The notes under the pieces were generated by a model that saw only the letters and a program-made list of their open reading frames with translations, was not told the DNA's origin and searched no databases. The translations under genes were made by a program, and so were the position numbers. From Patescibacteria group bacterium (lineage in GTDB: Bacteria > Patescibacteriota > Patescibacteriia > UBA10025 > JAHIVO01), in NCBI GenBank assembly GCA_041650915.1, contig JBAZKE010000002.1, positions 16,638 to 80,637 on the forward strand: 64,000 nucleotides of DNA. Direction: 5' to 3'. This document shows, one piece after another, positions 3,024 to 39,105 of this stretch; within the stretch, counting starts at the first letter, position 1; each line of letters opens with the position of its first letter.

Positions 3024-3602
3024 ATGTACCTCGTTCCAACGGTAGTTGAAAAATCAACACACGGCGAACGAGCCTACGATATATACTCTCGGCTACTTAA
3101 AGAGAGAATTATCTTCCTAGGCAATCCGATCGACGACACAGTAGCGAATACGGTCATCGCACAGCTACTGTTCTTAGAGTCTGTTGACAAGTCGAAAGAC
3201 ATCAAGCTCTACATCAACACCCCGGGCGGTTCGGTTACTGCCGGCTTAGCGATCTATGACACCATGCAGTACGTCAAACCGGACGTGACGACCATCTGCG
3301 TCGGGCTCGCAGGTTCGATGGGCGCAGTGCTCCTCGCGGCGGGCGCTAAAAAGAAGCGCTGTGCGCTCCCGAACTCCGAAATTCTCCTGCACCAGGTCAT
3401 GGGCGGAGCAGAGGGCCAAGCGGTAGACATTAAGATTAGAGCAGAGCACATCATCAAGATCAGAGATCGTATCAACCAGATACTCTCGGATCACACCGGA
3501 CAGTCGATCGACAGCATCAGCAGAGATACTGACCGTGACTTCTTCATGTCTGCCCCCGAGGCGAAGAAGTACGGCGTCGTGGATAAAATCATCCAGCAGT
3601 AG
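3024..3602 (+). CDS. clpP: ATP-dependent Clp protease proteolytic subunit
   Basis: [34 protein letters not shown] and the catalytic Ser region [14 protein letters not shown]. The homology is unmistakable. Confidence 0.9.
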
Positions 3603-5251: not shown

Positions 5252-6053
5252 TCCCCTCATCAAGGTCCTCTTTTTCGGTGATATTGTCGGAAAGCCTGGC
5301 AGGAGGGCGCTCGTGCAGGCAGTGCCAAATCTGAAAAAGAAGTACGCGCCGAATTACACGATAGCGAATGCGGAAAATATTGCCCACGGCATCGGCATCA
5401 CGAAAAAAACGCTTAGCGAATGCGCAAGTGCGGGGATTGACCTCTTTACCTCGGGGAATCATACCTGGGCAAAGCCTGAGGCAGAGAGTATCCTCGGCGA
5501 TGAGAATGCAAACCTCATCCGCCCTGCCAATGAACTGGAGGCCAAATCGGGCACGGGATACAGGATCGTTGATGCTGGAATCGGCAAGCTACTTGTGATA
5601 AACTTAATCGGCAGGGTTTTCATGGAGGGGAAATATGCTTCCCCCTTTACCGCCGTTGACAGCATCTTGGACGCAGTAGACGCTGATCAGCTCGCCGGAA
5701 CGATCGTCGATTTCCACGCAGAAGCGACCTCAGAAAAAAATGCCTTCGGATGGCACGTCGACGGGCGCGTATCGGCCGTCCTCGGAACGCATACGCACAT
5801 ACAAACCGCCGATGAACGAATACTTCCGAACGGCACGGCATACATCTCTGACATCGGGATGGTTGGATTGAGAGACTCGGTCATCGGCATTGACAAAGAT
5901 GTCATCGTCAACAACTTCCTGGAAAAGAGGCGCCTGCCGCATGACATTCCGGAACACGGCGTTTGCACGGTCGGCGCTGTACAGCTCGAAATCGACCCGC
6001 ATACCCAAAAAGCAGTGCGTATCACGCGGATTAGCACAGAGGTGACGGTTTAA
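5241..6053 (+). CDS. ymdB: YmdB-family metallophosphoesterase (2',3'-cyclic-nucleotide phosphodiesterase)
   Basis: KVLFFGDIVGKPGR, GNHTW and the GTHTH motif. It lies immediately downstream of rny, overlapping it, as in Firmicutes. Confidence 0.75.
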   Translation: MPDNPLIKVLFFGDIVGKPGRRALVQAVPNLKKKYAPNYTIANAENIAHGIGITKKTLSECASAGIDLFTSGNHTWAKPEAESILGDENANLIRPANELEAKSGTGYRIVDAGIGKLLVINLIGRVFMEGKYASPFTAVDSILDAVDADQLAGTIVDFHAEATSEKNAFGWHVDGRVSAVLGTHTHIQTADERILPNGTAYISDIGMVGLRDSVIGIDKDVIVNNFLEKRRLPHDIPEHGVCTVGAVQLEIDPHTQKAVRITRISTEVTV

Positions 6054-6573: not shown

Positions 6574-6623
6574 GGTGGGCGCAGATGGATTTGAACCATC
6601 GACCCCCACTGTATAGCGGCCGC
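6574..6623 (-). other. tRNA 3'-half fragment (partial duplicate of the adjacent tRNA-Ile(UAU), from anticodon stem to CCACC)
   Basis: From AGTGG onward to ..TGCGCCCACC (38-40 nt) this copy is identical to the full tRNA at 6698-6773, and it has no 5' half. Confidence 0.5.
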
Positions 6624-6697
6624 TTCTTCAACTCTTAAAATTATTTTTTTGAAAGCGGCCGATATATCGGCGATTAACATTATTTATCCCTTCTTTT

Positions 6698-6773
6698 TGG
6701 TGGGCGCAGATGGATTTGAACCATCGACCCCCACTTTATAAGAGTGGTGCTCTAACCGCTGAGCTATGCGCCC
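6698..6773 (-). tRNA. tRNA-Ile (anticodon UAU) with encoded CCA
   Basis: Manual fold: GGGCGCA-TA-GCTCAGCGGTTAGAGC-A-CCACT-CTTATAA-AGTGG-GGGTC-GATGG-TTCAAAT-CCATC-TGCGCCC-A-CCA. The anticodon loop is CU-UAU-AA. Confidence 0.7.
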
Positions 6774-6803
6774 ACCAAAAAGAAATAAAATTTTAATGAA
6801 AAT

Positions 6804-6846
6804 CGCCGCTATAAGAGTGATGCTCTAACCGCTGAGCTACAGGCCC
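6804..6846 (-). other. tRNA 5'-half fragment (GGGCCTGTAGCTCAGCGGTTAGAGCATCACTCTTATAG...) with no cognate 3' half
   Basis: The acceptor 5' strand and D-arm are near-identical to the adjacent tRNA, but the sequence diverges after the anticodon loop. Confidence 0.45.
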
Positions 6847-31204: not shown

Positions 31205-31308
31205 TACCCGGTACTATGCAAACCACCCCATGAACCTTGACAGTCAATATCGTGGTAAGAAAGAACGTTAATTCCATTTTTTGTACGTTTTAGTAAAAAC
31301 GTACACTA

Positions 31309-32799
<1,491 letters not shown>

Positions 32800-33040
32800 T
32801 CAAGGAGAATCACGCCGGTATTTATGCCGGCGAGGTCGATGCGCGGCCTCTCGAAGGCCGTGCAACCGCAGGTACCAACCTGCAAAAAACGCAAATACTT
32901 AGCGTTCTCTTCTTACCACAATAGTGACTGCCAAGTTCAAGGAATACGACTACAGCTCGATGTTGTACCAAACGAACCGAATTGATTTTTTCGCTCACGT
33001 CTAGTACACTGATTCCGAAGGCTGTAGCTTTTTTTATTAA

Positions 33041-33117
33041 GGGCGATTAGCTCAGGTGGTTAGAGCGCGTCACTGATAATGACGAGGTCCCAGGTTCGAA
33101 TCCTGGATCGCCCACCA
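33041..33117 (+). tRNA. tRNA-Ile (anticodon GAU) with encoded CCA
   Basis: GGGCGAT-TA-GCTCAGGTGGTTAGAGC-G-CGTCA-CTGATAA-TGACG-AGGTC-CCAGG-TTCGAAT-CCTGG-ATCGCCC-A-CCA. Confidence 0.9.
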
Positions 33118-33139
33118 CCATTTCAATCAATACTCGCTA

Positions 33140-33520
33140 ATGCCGATGTTTCCGCCGAGGTAGCTCAGTGGTTGAGTCCCGTATTTATGCCGAGGAATAA
33201 TATGCCGAGGTAGCTCAGTGGTAGAGCGAAGGACTGAAAATCCTTGCGTCGCCAGTCCGATTCTGGCCCTCGGCATAAATACGGGATAAACTCCGGACTG
33301 CATCGATGTGAAGAAAATCCTGGAGCCTGTCCCGCACACTGAACACAGTGAAGTGTTGCGGGATCTATCAGTCCGATTCTGGCCCTCGGCATGAGTGCGA
33401 TATTAATGAGCACTGAAAATCCTGGAGCCTGTCCTGAACATGTAGCGCAGCGAAATGGTTCAGGATCGCCAGTTCCCCCGGACTAGATCCGATTCTGACC
33501 CTCGGCATAAGCGAGAAATT
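33140..33520 (+). repeat. Array of degenerate tRNA-derived repeats
   Basis: The motif CAGTCCGATTCTGGCCCTCGGCAT occurs 3 times and (A)CTGAAAATCCT(GGAGCCTGTCC) occurs 3 times. The 5' tRNA segment GCCGAGGTAGCTCAGTGGT is duplicated, and a ~20-bp inverted repeat (CCCGTATTTATGCCGAGG / CCTCGGCATAAATACGGG) brackets the intact tRNA. Confidence 0.6.
33204..33275 (+). tRNA. tRNA-Phe-like (anticodon GAA) with an atypical T-loop (TCCGATT, C at position 55)
   Basis: GCCGAGG-TA-GCTC-AGTGGTA-GAGC-G-AAGGA-CTGAAAA-TCCTT-GCGTC-GCCAG-TCCGATT-CTGGC-CCTCGGC-A. It folds as a cloverleaf but lacks the canonical T54-Psi55. Confidence 0.5.
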
Positions 33521-33587
33521 GACAAACGAGGCAGCGAAGCGGGTTCCATCGAAAATGGAAAGGGCGTGACCATAGGAGCGCCTTGGG

Positions 33588-34016
33588 ATGAACGGCACCC
33601 AACCTGCAATGATCAGGCGAATGAAAAAAATCTTCTACAATAAAATCATTCGCGATAACATTCCGAATCGTATACGATCTGCCGGGGCAGATTATAGCGT
33701 GTGCGTTCTGCCGAAAAAAAAATTTGAAAAAGAACTCATCAGGAAAGTTGAAGAAGAGGCAGGCGGCATGCAGCGTGCCCAGACCAGACGGGAATTGATT
33801 GATGAAATGGCAGATGTAATCGATGTACTGGAAGCAATACGTTTACTGAAAAAAATTTCCAAACGCGAAGTCGCAGCCGCACGCACATGCAACCAAACAA
33901 AAAAGGGCGGTTTTAAAAAAAGGCTGTTCTTGTTCTGGTCATCGGACAGCGGCTATAAGATAAATGAGAAACGGCATGATAAACGGCGGGCACGTGCTGC
34001 ACGCCAAAAAACCTAA
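33588..34016 (+). CDS. Small basic protein; possible all-alpha NTP pyrophosphohydrolase (MazG-like) fold
   Basis: KIIRDNIP......Y.....KKFEKELIRKVEEEA......EL.DEMADVIDVLEAI resembles the MazG/HisE-type EExxE helices. Weak. Confidence 0.35.
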   Translation: MNGTQPAMIRRMKKIFYNKIIRDNIPNRIRSAGADYSVCVLPKKKFEKELIRKVEEEAGGMQRAQTRRELIDEMADVIDVLEAIRLLKKISKREVAAARTCNQTKKGGFKKRLFLFWSSDSGYKINEKRHDKRRARAARQKT

Positions 34017-34023
34017 AACGTAA

Positions 34024-34100
34024 CGGGGTGTGGCGCAGTTGGCTAGCGCGCGCGCTTTGGGAGCGCGAGGTCCCGAGTTCAAGTCTCGGCACCCCGACCA
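34024..34100 (+). tRNA. tRNA-Pro (anticodon UGG) with encoded CCA
   Basis: CGGGGTG-TG-GCGC-AGTTGGCTA-GCGC-G-CGCGC-TTTGGGA-GCGCG-AGGTC-CCGAG-TTCAAGT-CTCGG-CACCCCG-A-CCA. The C1:G72 pair is typical of tRNA-Pro. Confidence 0.9.
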
Positions 34101-38697: not shown

Positions 38698-39105
38698 TTG
38701 AAAAAGGGCATCACCGTTTAGTGGTGCGCTTTTTCATAGGTAGGCGGCGGCAGGAATCGAACGGGCAGGAGCGATCCCTGCCGGCAGGCTGGGGGAGCGC
38801 CGACGAATGCGAGCAGGCGCAGCATTCGGCGCTGCCGAGGGCCAGCCCCGGATCTAGTTCGGGGAAAATGGCGAAATCCCGCCGCATCGCAAGGCTCCTG
38901 CCTGCTCTACTCACACAATCAAACAGCCTGCTGATGCATAATACTTCAAACCCGGTAACTGAAGCAGGGATGGAATGGCCAAAAGAGATTTAAATTAAAG
39001 TTGGGAGAGAATGGATACAATTCGACCATATAGTGTCAGTAATTCATCAATTGATGCGCACTGACCGTTACAAATCAGTCAAAAACCAATCCACACCGTA
39101 TCCCC

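Follow-up and report, generated by a model that had tools for sequence, protein, structure and literature searches.

A tRNA-Phe(GAA) gene lying among partial copies of itself was found at positions 33204-33275 (+) of a 64,000-nt stretch of Patescibacteria DNA (GenBank assembly GCA_041650915.1, contig JBAZKE010000002.1; the whole stretch is hereafter called the window). The intact gene is enclosed by inverted repeats, here called clamps, and by fragments of its own 5' and 3' parts, here called shells. The same plan recurs across the clade, the arms of the inner clamp covary, and the shells are dispensable and mosaic. The explanation that we favour, with moderate confidence, is that one functional, clamped tRNA stands among the relics of a tRNA unit that was repeatedly duplicated within its own gene, or inserted into it, and that these relics then decayed by hairpin growth.

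The intact gene and its T-loop

A sequence-only reading of this DNA had proposed a cloverleaf tRNA with anticodon GAA, and both programs used here agree: ARAGORN reports a tRNA at 33203-33276, and 33204-33275 matches Rfam RF00005 at 69.3 bits (gathering score 29), covering model positions 1-71. The gene has discriminator A, does not encode CCA, and carries the T-loop TCCGATT, with C at position 55. Position 55 of tRNAs is almost always U or pseudouridine (Psi), and with its C at this position the gene departs from the canonical T54-Psi55-C56-R57-A58 loop. The same reading had noted TCCGATT in every copy, which is indeed the case in all three copies of the 3' end. It had also taken the loop as a suspicious sign. 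This suspicion is not upheld, given that the 3' half is found in the genomes of 88 species and that the tRNA is 100% conserved in relatives.

The exact 20-mer of the 3' end that bears C55, TCCGATTCTGRCCCTCGGCA, occurs in 88 species-representative genomes, mostly of Acidobacteriota and Patescibacteria. Moreover, the whole 72-nt tRNA is 100% identical in the related loci L019, L033, L054, L062, L079, L080 and L081 (L numbers denote loci fetched from other genomes), whose 16S genes, in the loci that carry one, are 88-91% identical to that of the window. Since the tRNA is unchanged in at least seven relatives at this distance, 33204-33275 is the working tRNA-Phe of the clade. The tRNA-Phe of L090 and L105 has the canonical T-loop TTCAATT and is otherwise identical. 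Judged from these comparisons, the C55 T-loop is a lineage variant, not the mark of a pseudogene or a defect. The 20-mer that contains it occurs in genomes of Acidobacteriota, Patescibacteria, Dormibacterota, Dehalococcoidia and Omnitrophota.

Partial copies around the gene

That partial tRNA copies surround the intact gene had been claimed before, and the repeat finder recovered every element listed. Upstream, an outer 5' fragment (33154-33176, +) comprises the acceptor 5' strand and the D-arm, ends at the junction of D-arm and anticodon-arm, and matches tRNA positions 1-23 at 22/23; the first 19 nt of the tRNA, earlier said to be duplicated there, are exact within it. Its counterparts in L062, L081, L079 and L090 bear hairpin insertions in the D-loop. 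A 7-nt copy of the acceptor 5' strand, GCCGAGG, is found closer to the gene, at 33189-33195.

Copies of the 3' end begin at 33253, 33369 and 33485 (repeat family D1). All three T-arm/acceptor copies proposed earlier were thus found, whereas their spacing is exactly 116 nt and not about 100 nt. The second copy (33369-33391) matches the 23-mer CAGTCCGATTCTGGCCCTCGGCA at 23/23, and the third (33488-33507) equals tRNA positions 53-72 at 19/20. With at most one mismatch, GGCCCTCGGCA has seven matches in the window against 1.3 expected (0/100 shuffles). A 53-nt unit that starts in the anticodon loop repeats at 33313 and 33415 at 77% (repeat family D2). In unit C, CTGAAAATCCT is unbroken at 33413-33423, and in unit B (33298-33321) there are CTG, a 13-nt insert and AAAATCCT; both anticodon segments lead into a common GGAGCCTGTCC and a long hairpin. 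The anticodon-arm copies with hairpin-forming insertions described in the earlier reading are therefore present, in units B and C.

Both units are hairpin-expanded 3' parts of a tRNA-Phe copy on the forward strand. Unit B (33291-33391), delimited by families D1 and D2, the piece map and alignment, has an anticodon-arm-like stem CTCCGGA/TCCTGGAG with a 13-nt loop insert at 33301-33313, a long hairpin at the variable position (33330-33363), a T-arm that is intact (33367-33383) and, at 33384-33391, the acceptor 3' strand with the A; via three G.U pairs, the trailer of the unit (33392-33399) pairs with 33180-33188. Unit C (33409-33507), supported by the repeat finder, alignment and the piece map, has the anticodon loop CTGAAAA (33413-33419), a hairpin TCCTGAAC/GTTCAGGA (33432-33465), a T-arm that a 15-nt insert (33473-33487) interrupts and, at 33500-33507, the acceptor 3' strand with the A. 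Its orthologue is the downstream unit of L090, in which the CCTGGAGCCTGTCCTGAAC...GTTCAGGATCG stem is kept and the loop is different.

The region holding units B and C (33277-33520) gave no match to RF00005 even at E<=10. In the Rfam search for known RNA families, at the gathering score and at E<=10, only tRNAs and chance-level matches were obtained, with no other family at the nest, and the search of 13 related loci returned rRNA, tRNA and one group I intron only. Tandem Repeats Finder reported no repeats, because the units are too rich in indels. The 411-nt region folds at -159.3 kcal/mol, with z = -7.0 relative to shuffles.

One further piece may belong to this set. At 32814-32840 (+), between the 16S gene and tRNA-Ile, there is tentatively a copy of a clamp arm, GTATTTATGCCG, followed by a degenerate tRNA-Phe 5' piece, GGCGAGGTCGAT. 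It has an exact 12-mer in common with 33181-33192, the piece that follows matches tRNA positions 1-12 at 9/12, and the stretch is complementary to 33271-33282 and, with G.U pairs, to 33387-33398. Given this piece, tRNA-Ile(GAT) might sit inside a still older tRNA-Phe shell.

A fourth expanded tRNA-Phe 3' unit (unit D) was observed 5.3 kb away, at 38833-38892 (-), inverted and beside tRNA-Gly(TCC). It is about 80% like the 3' part of unit C and adjoins no intact tRNA-Phe; tRNA-like debris continues past it on the minus strand, to about 38950.

Nested clamps and their covariation

The inverted repeat that had been noticed around the intact copy is present and 100% complementary, although it is 19 bp long and not 20. 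The left arm of this inner clamp (33177-33195, +) consists of TCCCGTATTTAT and the acceptor 5'-strand copy GCCGAGG. The right arm (33268-33286, +; inverted repeat I1) is formed by the tRNA's own acceptor 3' strand, the discriminator and the trailer TAAATACGGGA. An A/T-rich 8-nt spacer, AATAATAT (33196-33203, +), separates the left arm from tRNA position 1. A second inverted repeat (I2), 33133-33146 / 33502-33515, with 14 nt at 93%, encloses the whole set and is paired in the minimum free energy (MFE) fold. The left arm of this outer clamp (33133-33148, +) comprises CTCGCTAAT and a degenerate acceptor copy, GCCGATG, with a 5-nt spacer next to it, and the right arm (33502-33515, +) is the end of unit C with its trailer, TAAGCGAG. 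A sequence homologous to the outer left arm, CTCGCTTATGCCGGTG, is conserved in L079, L080 and L081. Because the outer inverted repeat encloses the inner clamp and the pieces, the layout is nested and not a plain array.

The geometry of the inner clamp is constant among relatives. In 10/10 loci with this design, tRNA position 1 follows the spare acceptor strand after 6-10 nt (8 in most loci). Nine of these ten have 16-20 of the 22 arm positions paired with the tRNA 3' strand and trailer; in L080, where the ancestral flank serves as the trailer, the figure is only 12/22.

The covariation of the clamp was evaluated in an alignment of eight genomes, over a helix of 22 pairs. Paired cells make up 85.7% of the helix, and 13 of the 22 pairs have changed on both sides. 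Compensatory cells number 40, where shuffles give 15.2 +/- 3.1 (0/500 reach 40), and the covariation score of 0.617 falls to 0.11-0.20 when the partners are slid by 1-3 columns. Nearly all arm positions show two to four types of Watson-Crick pair, with GCCG/CGGC and T(-1)-A73 invariant. That the sequence is free while the pairing is kept speaks for a stem and against a terminal repeat bound by a protein. This leader/trailer helix appears to be the sole non-tRNA feature of the nest that is actively kept, through compensatory change. Compared with stems of the RNase III type, that is, a helix of about two turns with compensatory pairing, the clamp shows a perfect 19 bp and compensation in the 13/22 pairs mentioned above.

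Recurrence among Patescibacteria and in other tRNA genes

The nested plan was found around the tRNA-Phe of L013, L019, L033, L042, L054, L062, L068, L079, L080, L081 and L090. The order is an outer 5' piece, an arm with the spare acceptor strand, a short spacer, the tRNA, the other arm and hairpin-expanded 3' pieces. A scripted count was made over all fetched loci, taking shared 10-mers within 500 nt as a partial self-copy and a leader/trailer duplex of <= -24 kcal/mol as strong. Partial self-copies accompany 36/64 tRNAs in the loci of Patescibacteria (or Candidate Phyla Radiation, CPR) and 4/76 in those of other phyla, and thus over half of the tRNAs in the sampled CPR loci are affected. A strong duplex flanks 21 of the 64 CPR tRNAs, 17 of which also have partial copies. 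Clamps are missing from many tRNAs of the same genomes.

Among relatives, nesting involves tRNAs for Ile, Pro and Val as well as Phe, with three-deep tRNA-Pro nests in L068 and L013 and nested tRNA-Ile and tRNA-Pro in L105. The window itself has a second case, in which tRNA-Ile(TAT) at 6698-6773 (-) stands within the anticodon loop of its own second copy. This nest (6574-6846, -) has an outer 5' half at 6810-6846, an outer 3' half at 6574-6615, and TATA at both junctions, and its leader/trailer pairing includes the CCA. The outer 3' half equals the inner one, and its pairing with the outer 5' acceptor strand, GGGCCTG, has been lost.

Several other features were observed in these loci. A 30-nt two-hairpin module, TCCGCC(N3-4)GGCGGA-TCAGCC(N3)GGCTGA, is found in L090 (363-398), L105 (3560-3595), L013 (about 5985-6030) and L068 (about 3500-3545), after GCAGTT or GGGTT in the D- or T-loop of relic Phe and Pro copies. 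Its stem sequences are conserved across distantly related CPR genomes, it is absent from the window, and it resembles a small insert or binding module with sequence specificity. Genes for small GIY-YIG nucleases (80-91 aa) occur often in these genomes (L013 5360-5635, L105 1-267, L102 301-543, L103 3966-4211); that of L013 is within the tRNA-Phe nest (Pfam E = 4.7e-14), and that of L105 is just upstream of the 16S. In L023 (1721-1949, -), the anticodon loop of tRNA-Phe holds a group I intron (Rfam, 84.6 bits), and an open reading frame (ORF) follows the gene. In L074, from Omnitrophota (2540-2805), there is a 45-nt exact repeat of the tRNA-Phe 3' end and trailer, 190 nt downstream, unnested and unclamped. 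A metagenome scan for variants of the trailer motif found only the contig of L081 again, among the matches listed. A search of 2.9 million viral contigs gave no match to the tRNA's 3' half or to the B/C unit.

Plain, intermediate and mosaic alleles

L105 (GCA_964419765.1) and L090 are 96.5% identical over 4.4 kb. The tRNA-Phe of L105 (2308-2382) is plain, has an encoded CCA and lacks both clamp and fragments; it directly abuts the tRNA-Ile nest and ends 16 nt before the MazG-like start. The clamp and an expanded downstream unit of 190 nt are found in L090 (1-480) and in L091, an independent Logan contig, and in L090, where the upstream flank is readable, the outer 5' piece is also present. The two loci form a natural empty/filled pair for the tRNA-Phe nest.

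Other relatives show intermediate or differing states. L080 is half-collapsed: it has the 5' half-copy and the left arm, and the tRNA 3' end joins the ancestral flank. L079 and L081, with 16S genes 97.1% identical, have identical outer flanks and different interiors. Between the window and L062 (16S 91.0%), a 128-nt block is 100% identical, 55 nt of it being non-tRNA flank, and the spacers beside it cannot be aligned. Such identity next to unalignable spacers points to horizontal exchange or conversion and not to vertical conservation. On this evidence the shells are dispensable, fast-changing and mosaic. L062 (4298-4640) and L019 (5904-6185) also have, downstream of the intact gene, a full-length hairpin-expanded tRNA-Phe-like copy of about 300 nt. 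The hairpin of its D-loop insert, GTGAAGC/GCTTCAC in one and GCGAAGC/GCTTTGC in the other, shows changes that look compensatory.

Each piece was mapped onto tRNA coordinates. In the nine Phe loci with upstream pieces, these are only 5' parts and end at or before position 43. Downstream pieces are 3' parts, with the exception of the full-length expanded copy of L062. In 6/8 loci having both, the outer 5' end meets the outer 3' start within a few nt (window 23|27, L033 43|42, L090 27|26, L042 24|21, L062 23|28, L079 29|37), which is what one gene split at a single point would leave. The relics retain the stems and the anticodon loop, and the inserts are in or near the D-loop, position 26 and the anticodon, variable and T-loops, some D-loop inserts cutting the 5' strand of the D-stem.

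In many cases the outermost 3' end encodes CCA and adjoins the conserved flank, whereas the inner tRNAs lack CCA and are clamped (L033, L013, L079 and tRNA-Ile of L105). An encoded CCA marks the older copy. Hairpin growth is ongoing. In the outer tRNA-Pro copy, a new hairpin sets L090 and L105 apart. The T-loop remnant of unit D of the window and of L042 now reads TCCGGGG instead of TCCGATT and completes a hairpin with an inserted CCCCGA or CCCCGGA; this change would be the expected product of template switching at a quasi-palindrome.

Origin of the nest and alternative explanations

In the scenario that we favour, the unit would consist of the left arm, the spare acceptor strand, the spacer of about 8 nt, the tRNA and the right arm, and it would have been repeatedly duplicated or inserted within or beside the resident gene. 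As the incoming unit carries an intact tRNA, the resident copy could be broken at no cost. Its 5' fragments would be displaced upstream (33154-33176, perhaps also 32814-32840) and its 3' fragments downstream (units B and C). These redundant pieces would then decay, chiefly as hairpins grow where the D-, anticodon-, variable- and T-loops used to be. The clamp would travel with the inner tRNA, and direct repeats would permit collapse to a plain gene. The process is ongoing, with pieces swapped between lineages: close relatives are plain, half-collapsed or nested, and distant ones share identical blocks.

In the primary transcript of 16S, tRNA-Ile and nest, the clamp may form an RNase III-type processing or insulating stem. 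It would separate the inner pre-tRNA from shell fragments whose acceptor strands are the same, ahead of the action of RNase P, the trimming of the 3' end and the addition of CCA. The maintenance of the clamp by compensation suggests that it matters in the nested context. We infer both this RNA-level role and the mechanism of insertion or duplication. Candidates for the latter include homology-assisted recombination with incoming DNA, in which the invariant tRNA would serve as anchor, and two-sided tandem duplication at a structure that blocks replication. A third is nuclease-stimulated homing, for which the GIY-YIG gene in the nest of L013, the one beside the 16S of L105 and the group I intron of L023 provide the evidence. 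The tRNA-Phe nest would be best placed with relics of tRNA-gene duplication and insertion. Among the options offered in the sequence-only reading, a pseudo-tRNA array, here around one intact gene, comes closest, since the units are not recognised as tRNA at E<=10 and L105 does without them.

Several observations weigh against this explanation. In the nearest-neighbour model the clamp conformation, at -56.1 kcal/mol, is 11 kcal/mol stabler than the cloverleaf with free arms, at -45.0 kcal/mol, and the predicted clamp takes the tRNA's own acceptor stem, which would be awkward for a simple helper role. G.U is not in clear excess over A.C (137 vs 123 overall, about 13 vs 4-7 in the arms), in a test that is small and noisy. 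Sense and antisense strands fold equally well (-159.3 and -162.1 kcal/mol), and the clamp arms are nearly pure Watson-Crick. A hairpin acting at the DNA level, or homogenisation by template switching, fits these three facts equally well. L105, a close relative, has a tRNA-Phe with no clamp at all.

As for the mechanism, no recombinase, integrase or homing nuclease was found in or beside the nest of the window. A GIY-YIG gene lies inside a nest only in L013, and such genes are common in these genomes. Two independent tandem duplications are a viable alternative to true insertion. The break points vary (D-loop, position 26, anticodon loop) across lineages and tRNAs, which argues against one site-specific enzyme; a site-specific homing endonuclease, considered as a candidate, is weakened by this variation. 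Finally, at a 16S identity of about 87%, copy 3 of L062 and its counterpart in L019 match at 76% over about 230 nt, and some of the changes look compensatory. This pair of segments and the pair formed by unit C and L090 look too conserved for junk, and horizontal exchange or a function would be needed to account for them.

A possible, if doubtful, alternative is that the clamped unit is a self-complementing mobile cassette that invades the tRNA gene it replaces, using the tRNA or shell fragments as homology. The spare copy would keep the host viable, in a form of homing without splicing, and re-invasion would build Russian-doll nests. The covarying clamp would then be an essential signal, either as an RNA processing stem or as a hairpin in single-stranded DNA. 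If this were true, the cassette would be a selfish or semi-selfish element of a new class, one confined to the tRNA genes of Patescibacteria.

It is unlikely that shells, clamps and inner tRNA together form one large structured transcript whose tRNA-like modules have a function of their own, for example as a scaffold for processing, as a regulator, or as a decoy to a nuclease or tRNA-binding factor. Such an RNA would account for the folding of the region far beyond that of shuffles (z = -7.0), for the covariation of the clamp, and for the location of the shells on the tRNA coding strand, downstream of 16S and tRNA-Ile. It would also fit the confinement of expansions to loop positions, with the stems and the anticodon loop CTGAAAAT kept. 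The hairpin at the variable position keeps its TCC.../...GGA stem while the interiors differ (window B, window C, L090, L042), and the resemblance of L062 copy 3 to L019 agrees with such a view. However, a genome 96.5% identical has a plain allele, architecture varies between relatives at 97% 16S identity, no Rfam family matches, and neither folding nor G.U counts show a sense-strand bias. In addition, unit C has a degenerate T-arm, the pairing of the outer acceptor is degenerate as well, a fragment of similar kind is found in inverted orientation at another locus (38833-38892), and template switching also yields perfect hairpins in the absence of selection. The earlier suggestion of a structured RNA built from tRNA-like modules thus keeps the covarying clamp in its favour, and loses ground on the dispensable shells, the missing excess of G.U pairs and the equal behaviour of sense and antisense.

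Unlikely as well, and ranked next, is that the nest is purely a by-product of mutation in a lineage prone to template switching at quasi-palindromes and to slippage at highly structured tRNA genes, where stems would grow and segments duplicate; the clamp, too, would then be an extension of the acceptor stem that is under no selection. In favour of this view, the inverted repeats, perfect or nearly so, use only Watson-Crick pairs, sense and antisense folding energies are equal, and the T-loop remnant has been 'corrected' into a perfect hairpin. A new hairpin distinguishes near-identical genomes, the spare acceptor strand resembles a reverse-complement copy of the 3' end and trailer, and a tandem duplication with one break inside the gene will by itself leave 5' parts upstream and 3' parts downstream. 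On the other side, the geometry of arm, acceptor copy and spacer of about 8 nt is kept in 10 loci despite matched turnover of the arms, and looks maintained; the 128-nt identical block between genomes at 91% 16S identity requires transfer or constraint; and many tRNAs of the same genomes have no clamps.

Unlikely too, and placed behind the former, is repeated integration in tRNA-Phe of elements with a tyrosine integrase, each of which would have supplied a replacement 3' part, displaced the old one and later been deleted. The earlier suggestion of serial integration and excision scars draws on the direct 3' repeats, which start at the anticodon loop or T-arm, reach the 3' end and have related trailers of their own. 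The 45-nt repeat of L074 has a textbook look, and in L079 a deaminase ORF stands between the tRNA and a distal 3' fragment that abuts the conserved flank. Yet the repeats of the window are spaced by 116 nt, with no ORF or integrase between or beside them; the neighbours are syntenic housekeeping genes, and none of the 2.9 million viral contigs matched. Moreover, duplication has occurred on both sides of the gene (33154-33176 and 33189-33195 upstream) and not on one. The 5' fragments, the spare acceptor strand with its 8-nt spacer, the covarying nested repeats and the hairpins that replace loops would be left unaccounted for.

It is very improbable that the outer copy is a functional multi-intron tRNA-Phe, from which the inserts, one of them holding the inner tRNA, are spliced out and the exons ligated. 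The inserts do lie at the D-loop, position 26 and the anticodon, variable and T-loops, their removal from 33154-33391 leaves a near-cloverleaf with a CTGAAAA loop, and the tRNA-Phe of L023 carries a real group I intron. By inspection, however, the helix at the junction is a perfect 19 bp with a single 4-nt bulge on the 3' side and no 3-4-3 bulge-helix-bulge (BHB) motif, and the window has no group I/II signal (no match to the RF00028 core). No protein-dependent pathway of tRNA splicing is known in bacteria. Close relatives have different inserts, the anticodon and T stems of the outer copy are not canonical, and the T-arm of unit C is broken. The outer product would also be redundant with the inner one, as an uninterrupted tRNA lies inside and L105 has no outer copy.

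Mis-assembly of the repeats has a negligible probability: the source is a metagenome-assembled genome and short-read assemblies are error-prone at repeats, but the same architecture occurs in more than 10 independent assemblies from different projects, long contigs included, L090 (NCBI) and L091 (Logan) agree over the L090-type array, and the differences between units are unlike an artefact.

A miniature inverted-repeat transposable element (MITE) was also considered and rejected. The inverted repeats are present (19 bp, at the ends of a 110-nt unit), but there is no target-site duplication (the flanks, TTGAG and TAAAC, are not repeats) and there are no dispersed copies. The arm occurs only at this locus, together with the partial copy 360 nt upstream, and the arms vary freely between genomes.

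Relation to known systems and significance

The nearest known systems each share one aspect with the nest, and none covers the whole. Integrative elements at tRNA genes leave displaced 3' tRNA fragments that flank genomic islands and prophages, and a sublocation preference of integrases at tRNA genes was reportedly described by Williams in 2002. As in tRNA arrays at such attachment sites, in the window the intact gene is kept, partial 3' copies pile up downstream, and the site is a hot spot among relatives. Unlike them, it has no element or integrase between the 116-nt repeats, and it has 5' fragments upstream, a covarying clamp and relics remodelled by hairpins.

The cycle of homing endonucleases, group I introns and inteins, which runs through invasion, fixation, decay and loss, resembles the nests in the insertion into an essential gene without loss of function, in the filled and empty alleles, and in horizontal spread. 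A target that can be re-invaded could give Russian-doll nesting, and the GIY-YIG gene of L013 and the intron of L023 add to the likeness. In the nests, however, function is kept by a spare gene copy and not by splicing, insertion points are variable, and most have no nuclease.

By quasi-palindrome template switching (the Ripley model), imperfect inverted repeats become perfect hairpins. The relics resemble the products of this mutagenesis in that the stems of relaxed tRNA copies are extended and the arms change on both sides at once. The process alone, though, yields neither direct partial copies nor the spacer geometry nor identical blocks across distant genomes. The RNase III stems of rRNA, like the clamp, consist of a long leader/trailer helix that loops out a stable RNA from a polycistronic rRNA-tRNA transcript, with the pairing kept. 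The clamp differs in that it surrounds a tRNA and not an rRNA, and in that it uses the tRNA's own acceptor 3' strand with a decoy 5' strand.

Disrupted tRNA genes of archaea and red algae, which are multi-intron, split or permuted (PMC4390854, PMC4090602, PMC3978253), have interruptions at the same D-, anticodon-, variable- and T-loops and leader/trailer complementarity beside the tRNA pieces. There, a BHB endonuclease and a ligase rejoin the pieces into the only functional tRNA. In the window, where the host is a bacterium, the inner tRNA is uninterrupted, no BHB is evident, and the interrupted copy can be dispensed with. A link between tRNA gene disruption and mobile DNA has been proposed (PMC3293823), and short intervening sequences are on record in CPR rRNA genes (PMC11270868). 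Our literature search, whose coverage was incomplete, brought up no description, for Patescibacteria, of a tRNA gene nested among its own fragments or of a covarying clamp that includes a decoy acceptor strand.

If the favoured reading is true, this would be a distinct form of tRNA-gene evolution, in which a gene is overwritten from within by its own clamped copy and is surrounded by concentric relics swollen with hairpins, with alleles that span plain to triple-nested within a species-level cluster. The covarying stem, which hijacks the acceptor 3' strand with a decoy 5' strand, would be a testable feature of tRNA maturation in CPR. Furthermore, the 128-nt block at 91% 16S identity suggests that tRNA genes may act as recombination anchors. 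The relics can be mis-called as pseudo-tRNAs or break tRNA callers, and they are of relevance to the assembly and binning of CPR rRNA-tRNA regions.

Gene neighbourhood

A complete 16S rRNA gene (Rfam RF00177, 1448.6 bits) lies at 31306-32800 (+), and no match to a 23S rRNA gene was obtained with Rfam anywhere in the 64-kb window, in agreement with the 'orphan 16S' of the sequence-only reading. It is followed by tRNA-Ile(GAT) at 33041-33117 (+; ARAGORN, and Rfam at 72.6 bits), an ordinary gene that is unclamped and has no partial copies, with a leader-trailer duplex of -12.3 kcal/mol and flanks that share no 10-mers. The tRNA-Phe starts 86 nt 3' of it, and the 16S, tRNA-Ile and the entire nest are on one strand. 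A promoter and terminator scan gave a lone promoter-like match, in the 8-nt spacer; it is within chance expectation and badly placed, and the idea of a leaderless tRNA promoter there was dropped.

On the right, the locus is bounded by a gene for a MazG-like nucleoside triphosphate pyrophosphohydrolase (33621-34016, +), outside the repeat system. Its product is 100% identical to P0001, annotated at NCBI as a nucleoside triphosphate pyrophosphohydrolase from a Patescibacteria metagenome-assembled genome. The genes of the MazG homologues P0005, P0012, P0013, P0017, P0020 and P0024 do not adjoin tRNA-Phe, and informative loci were reached only via P0003 and P0081. The MazG-like gene is syntenic in L033, L081, L090 and L105, and the neighbours of the nest in the window are MazG-like, tRNA-Pro, NUDIX and permease genes. 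The whole order, S16 - KhpA - TrmD - 16S - tRNA-Ile - tRNA-Phe - MazG-like - tRNA-Pro, recurs in the Patescibacteria loci L062, L081, L079, L054, L033 and L105, and its part 16S - tRNA-Ile - (tRNA-Val) - tRNA-Phe - MazG-like - tRNA-Pro (31306-34100 in the window) is conserved at 88-91% 16S identity.

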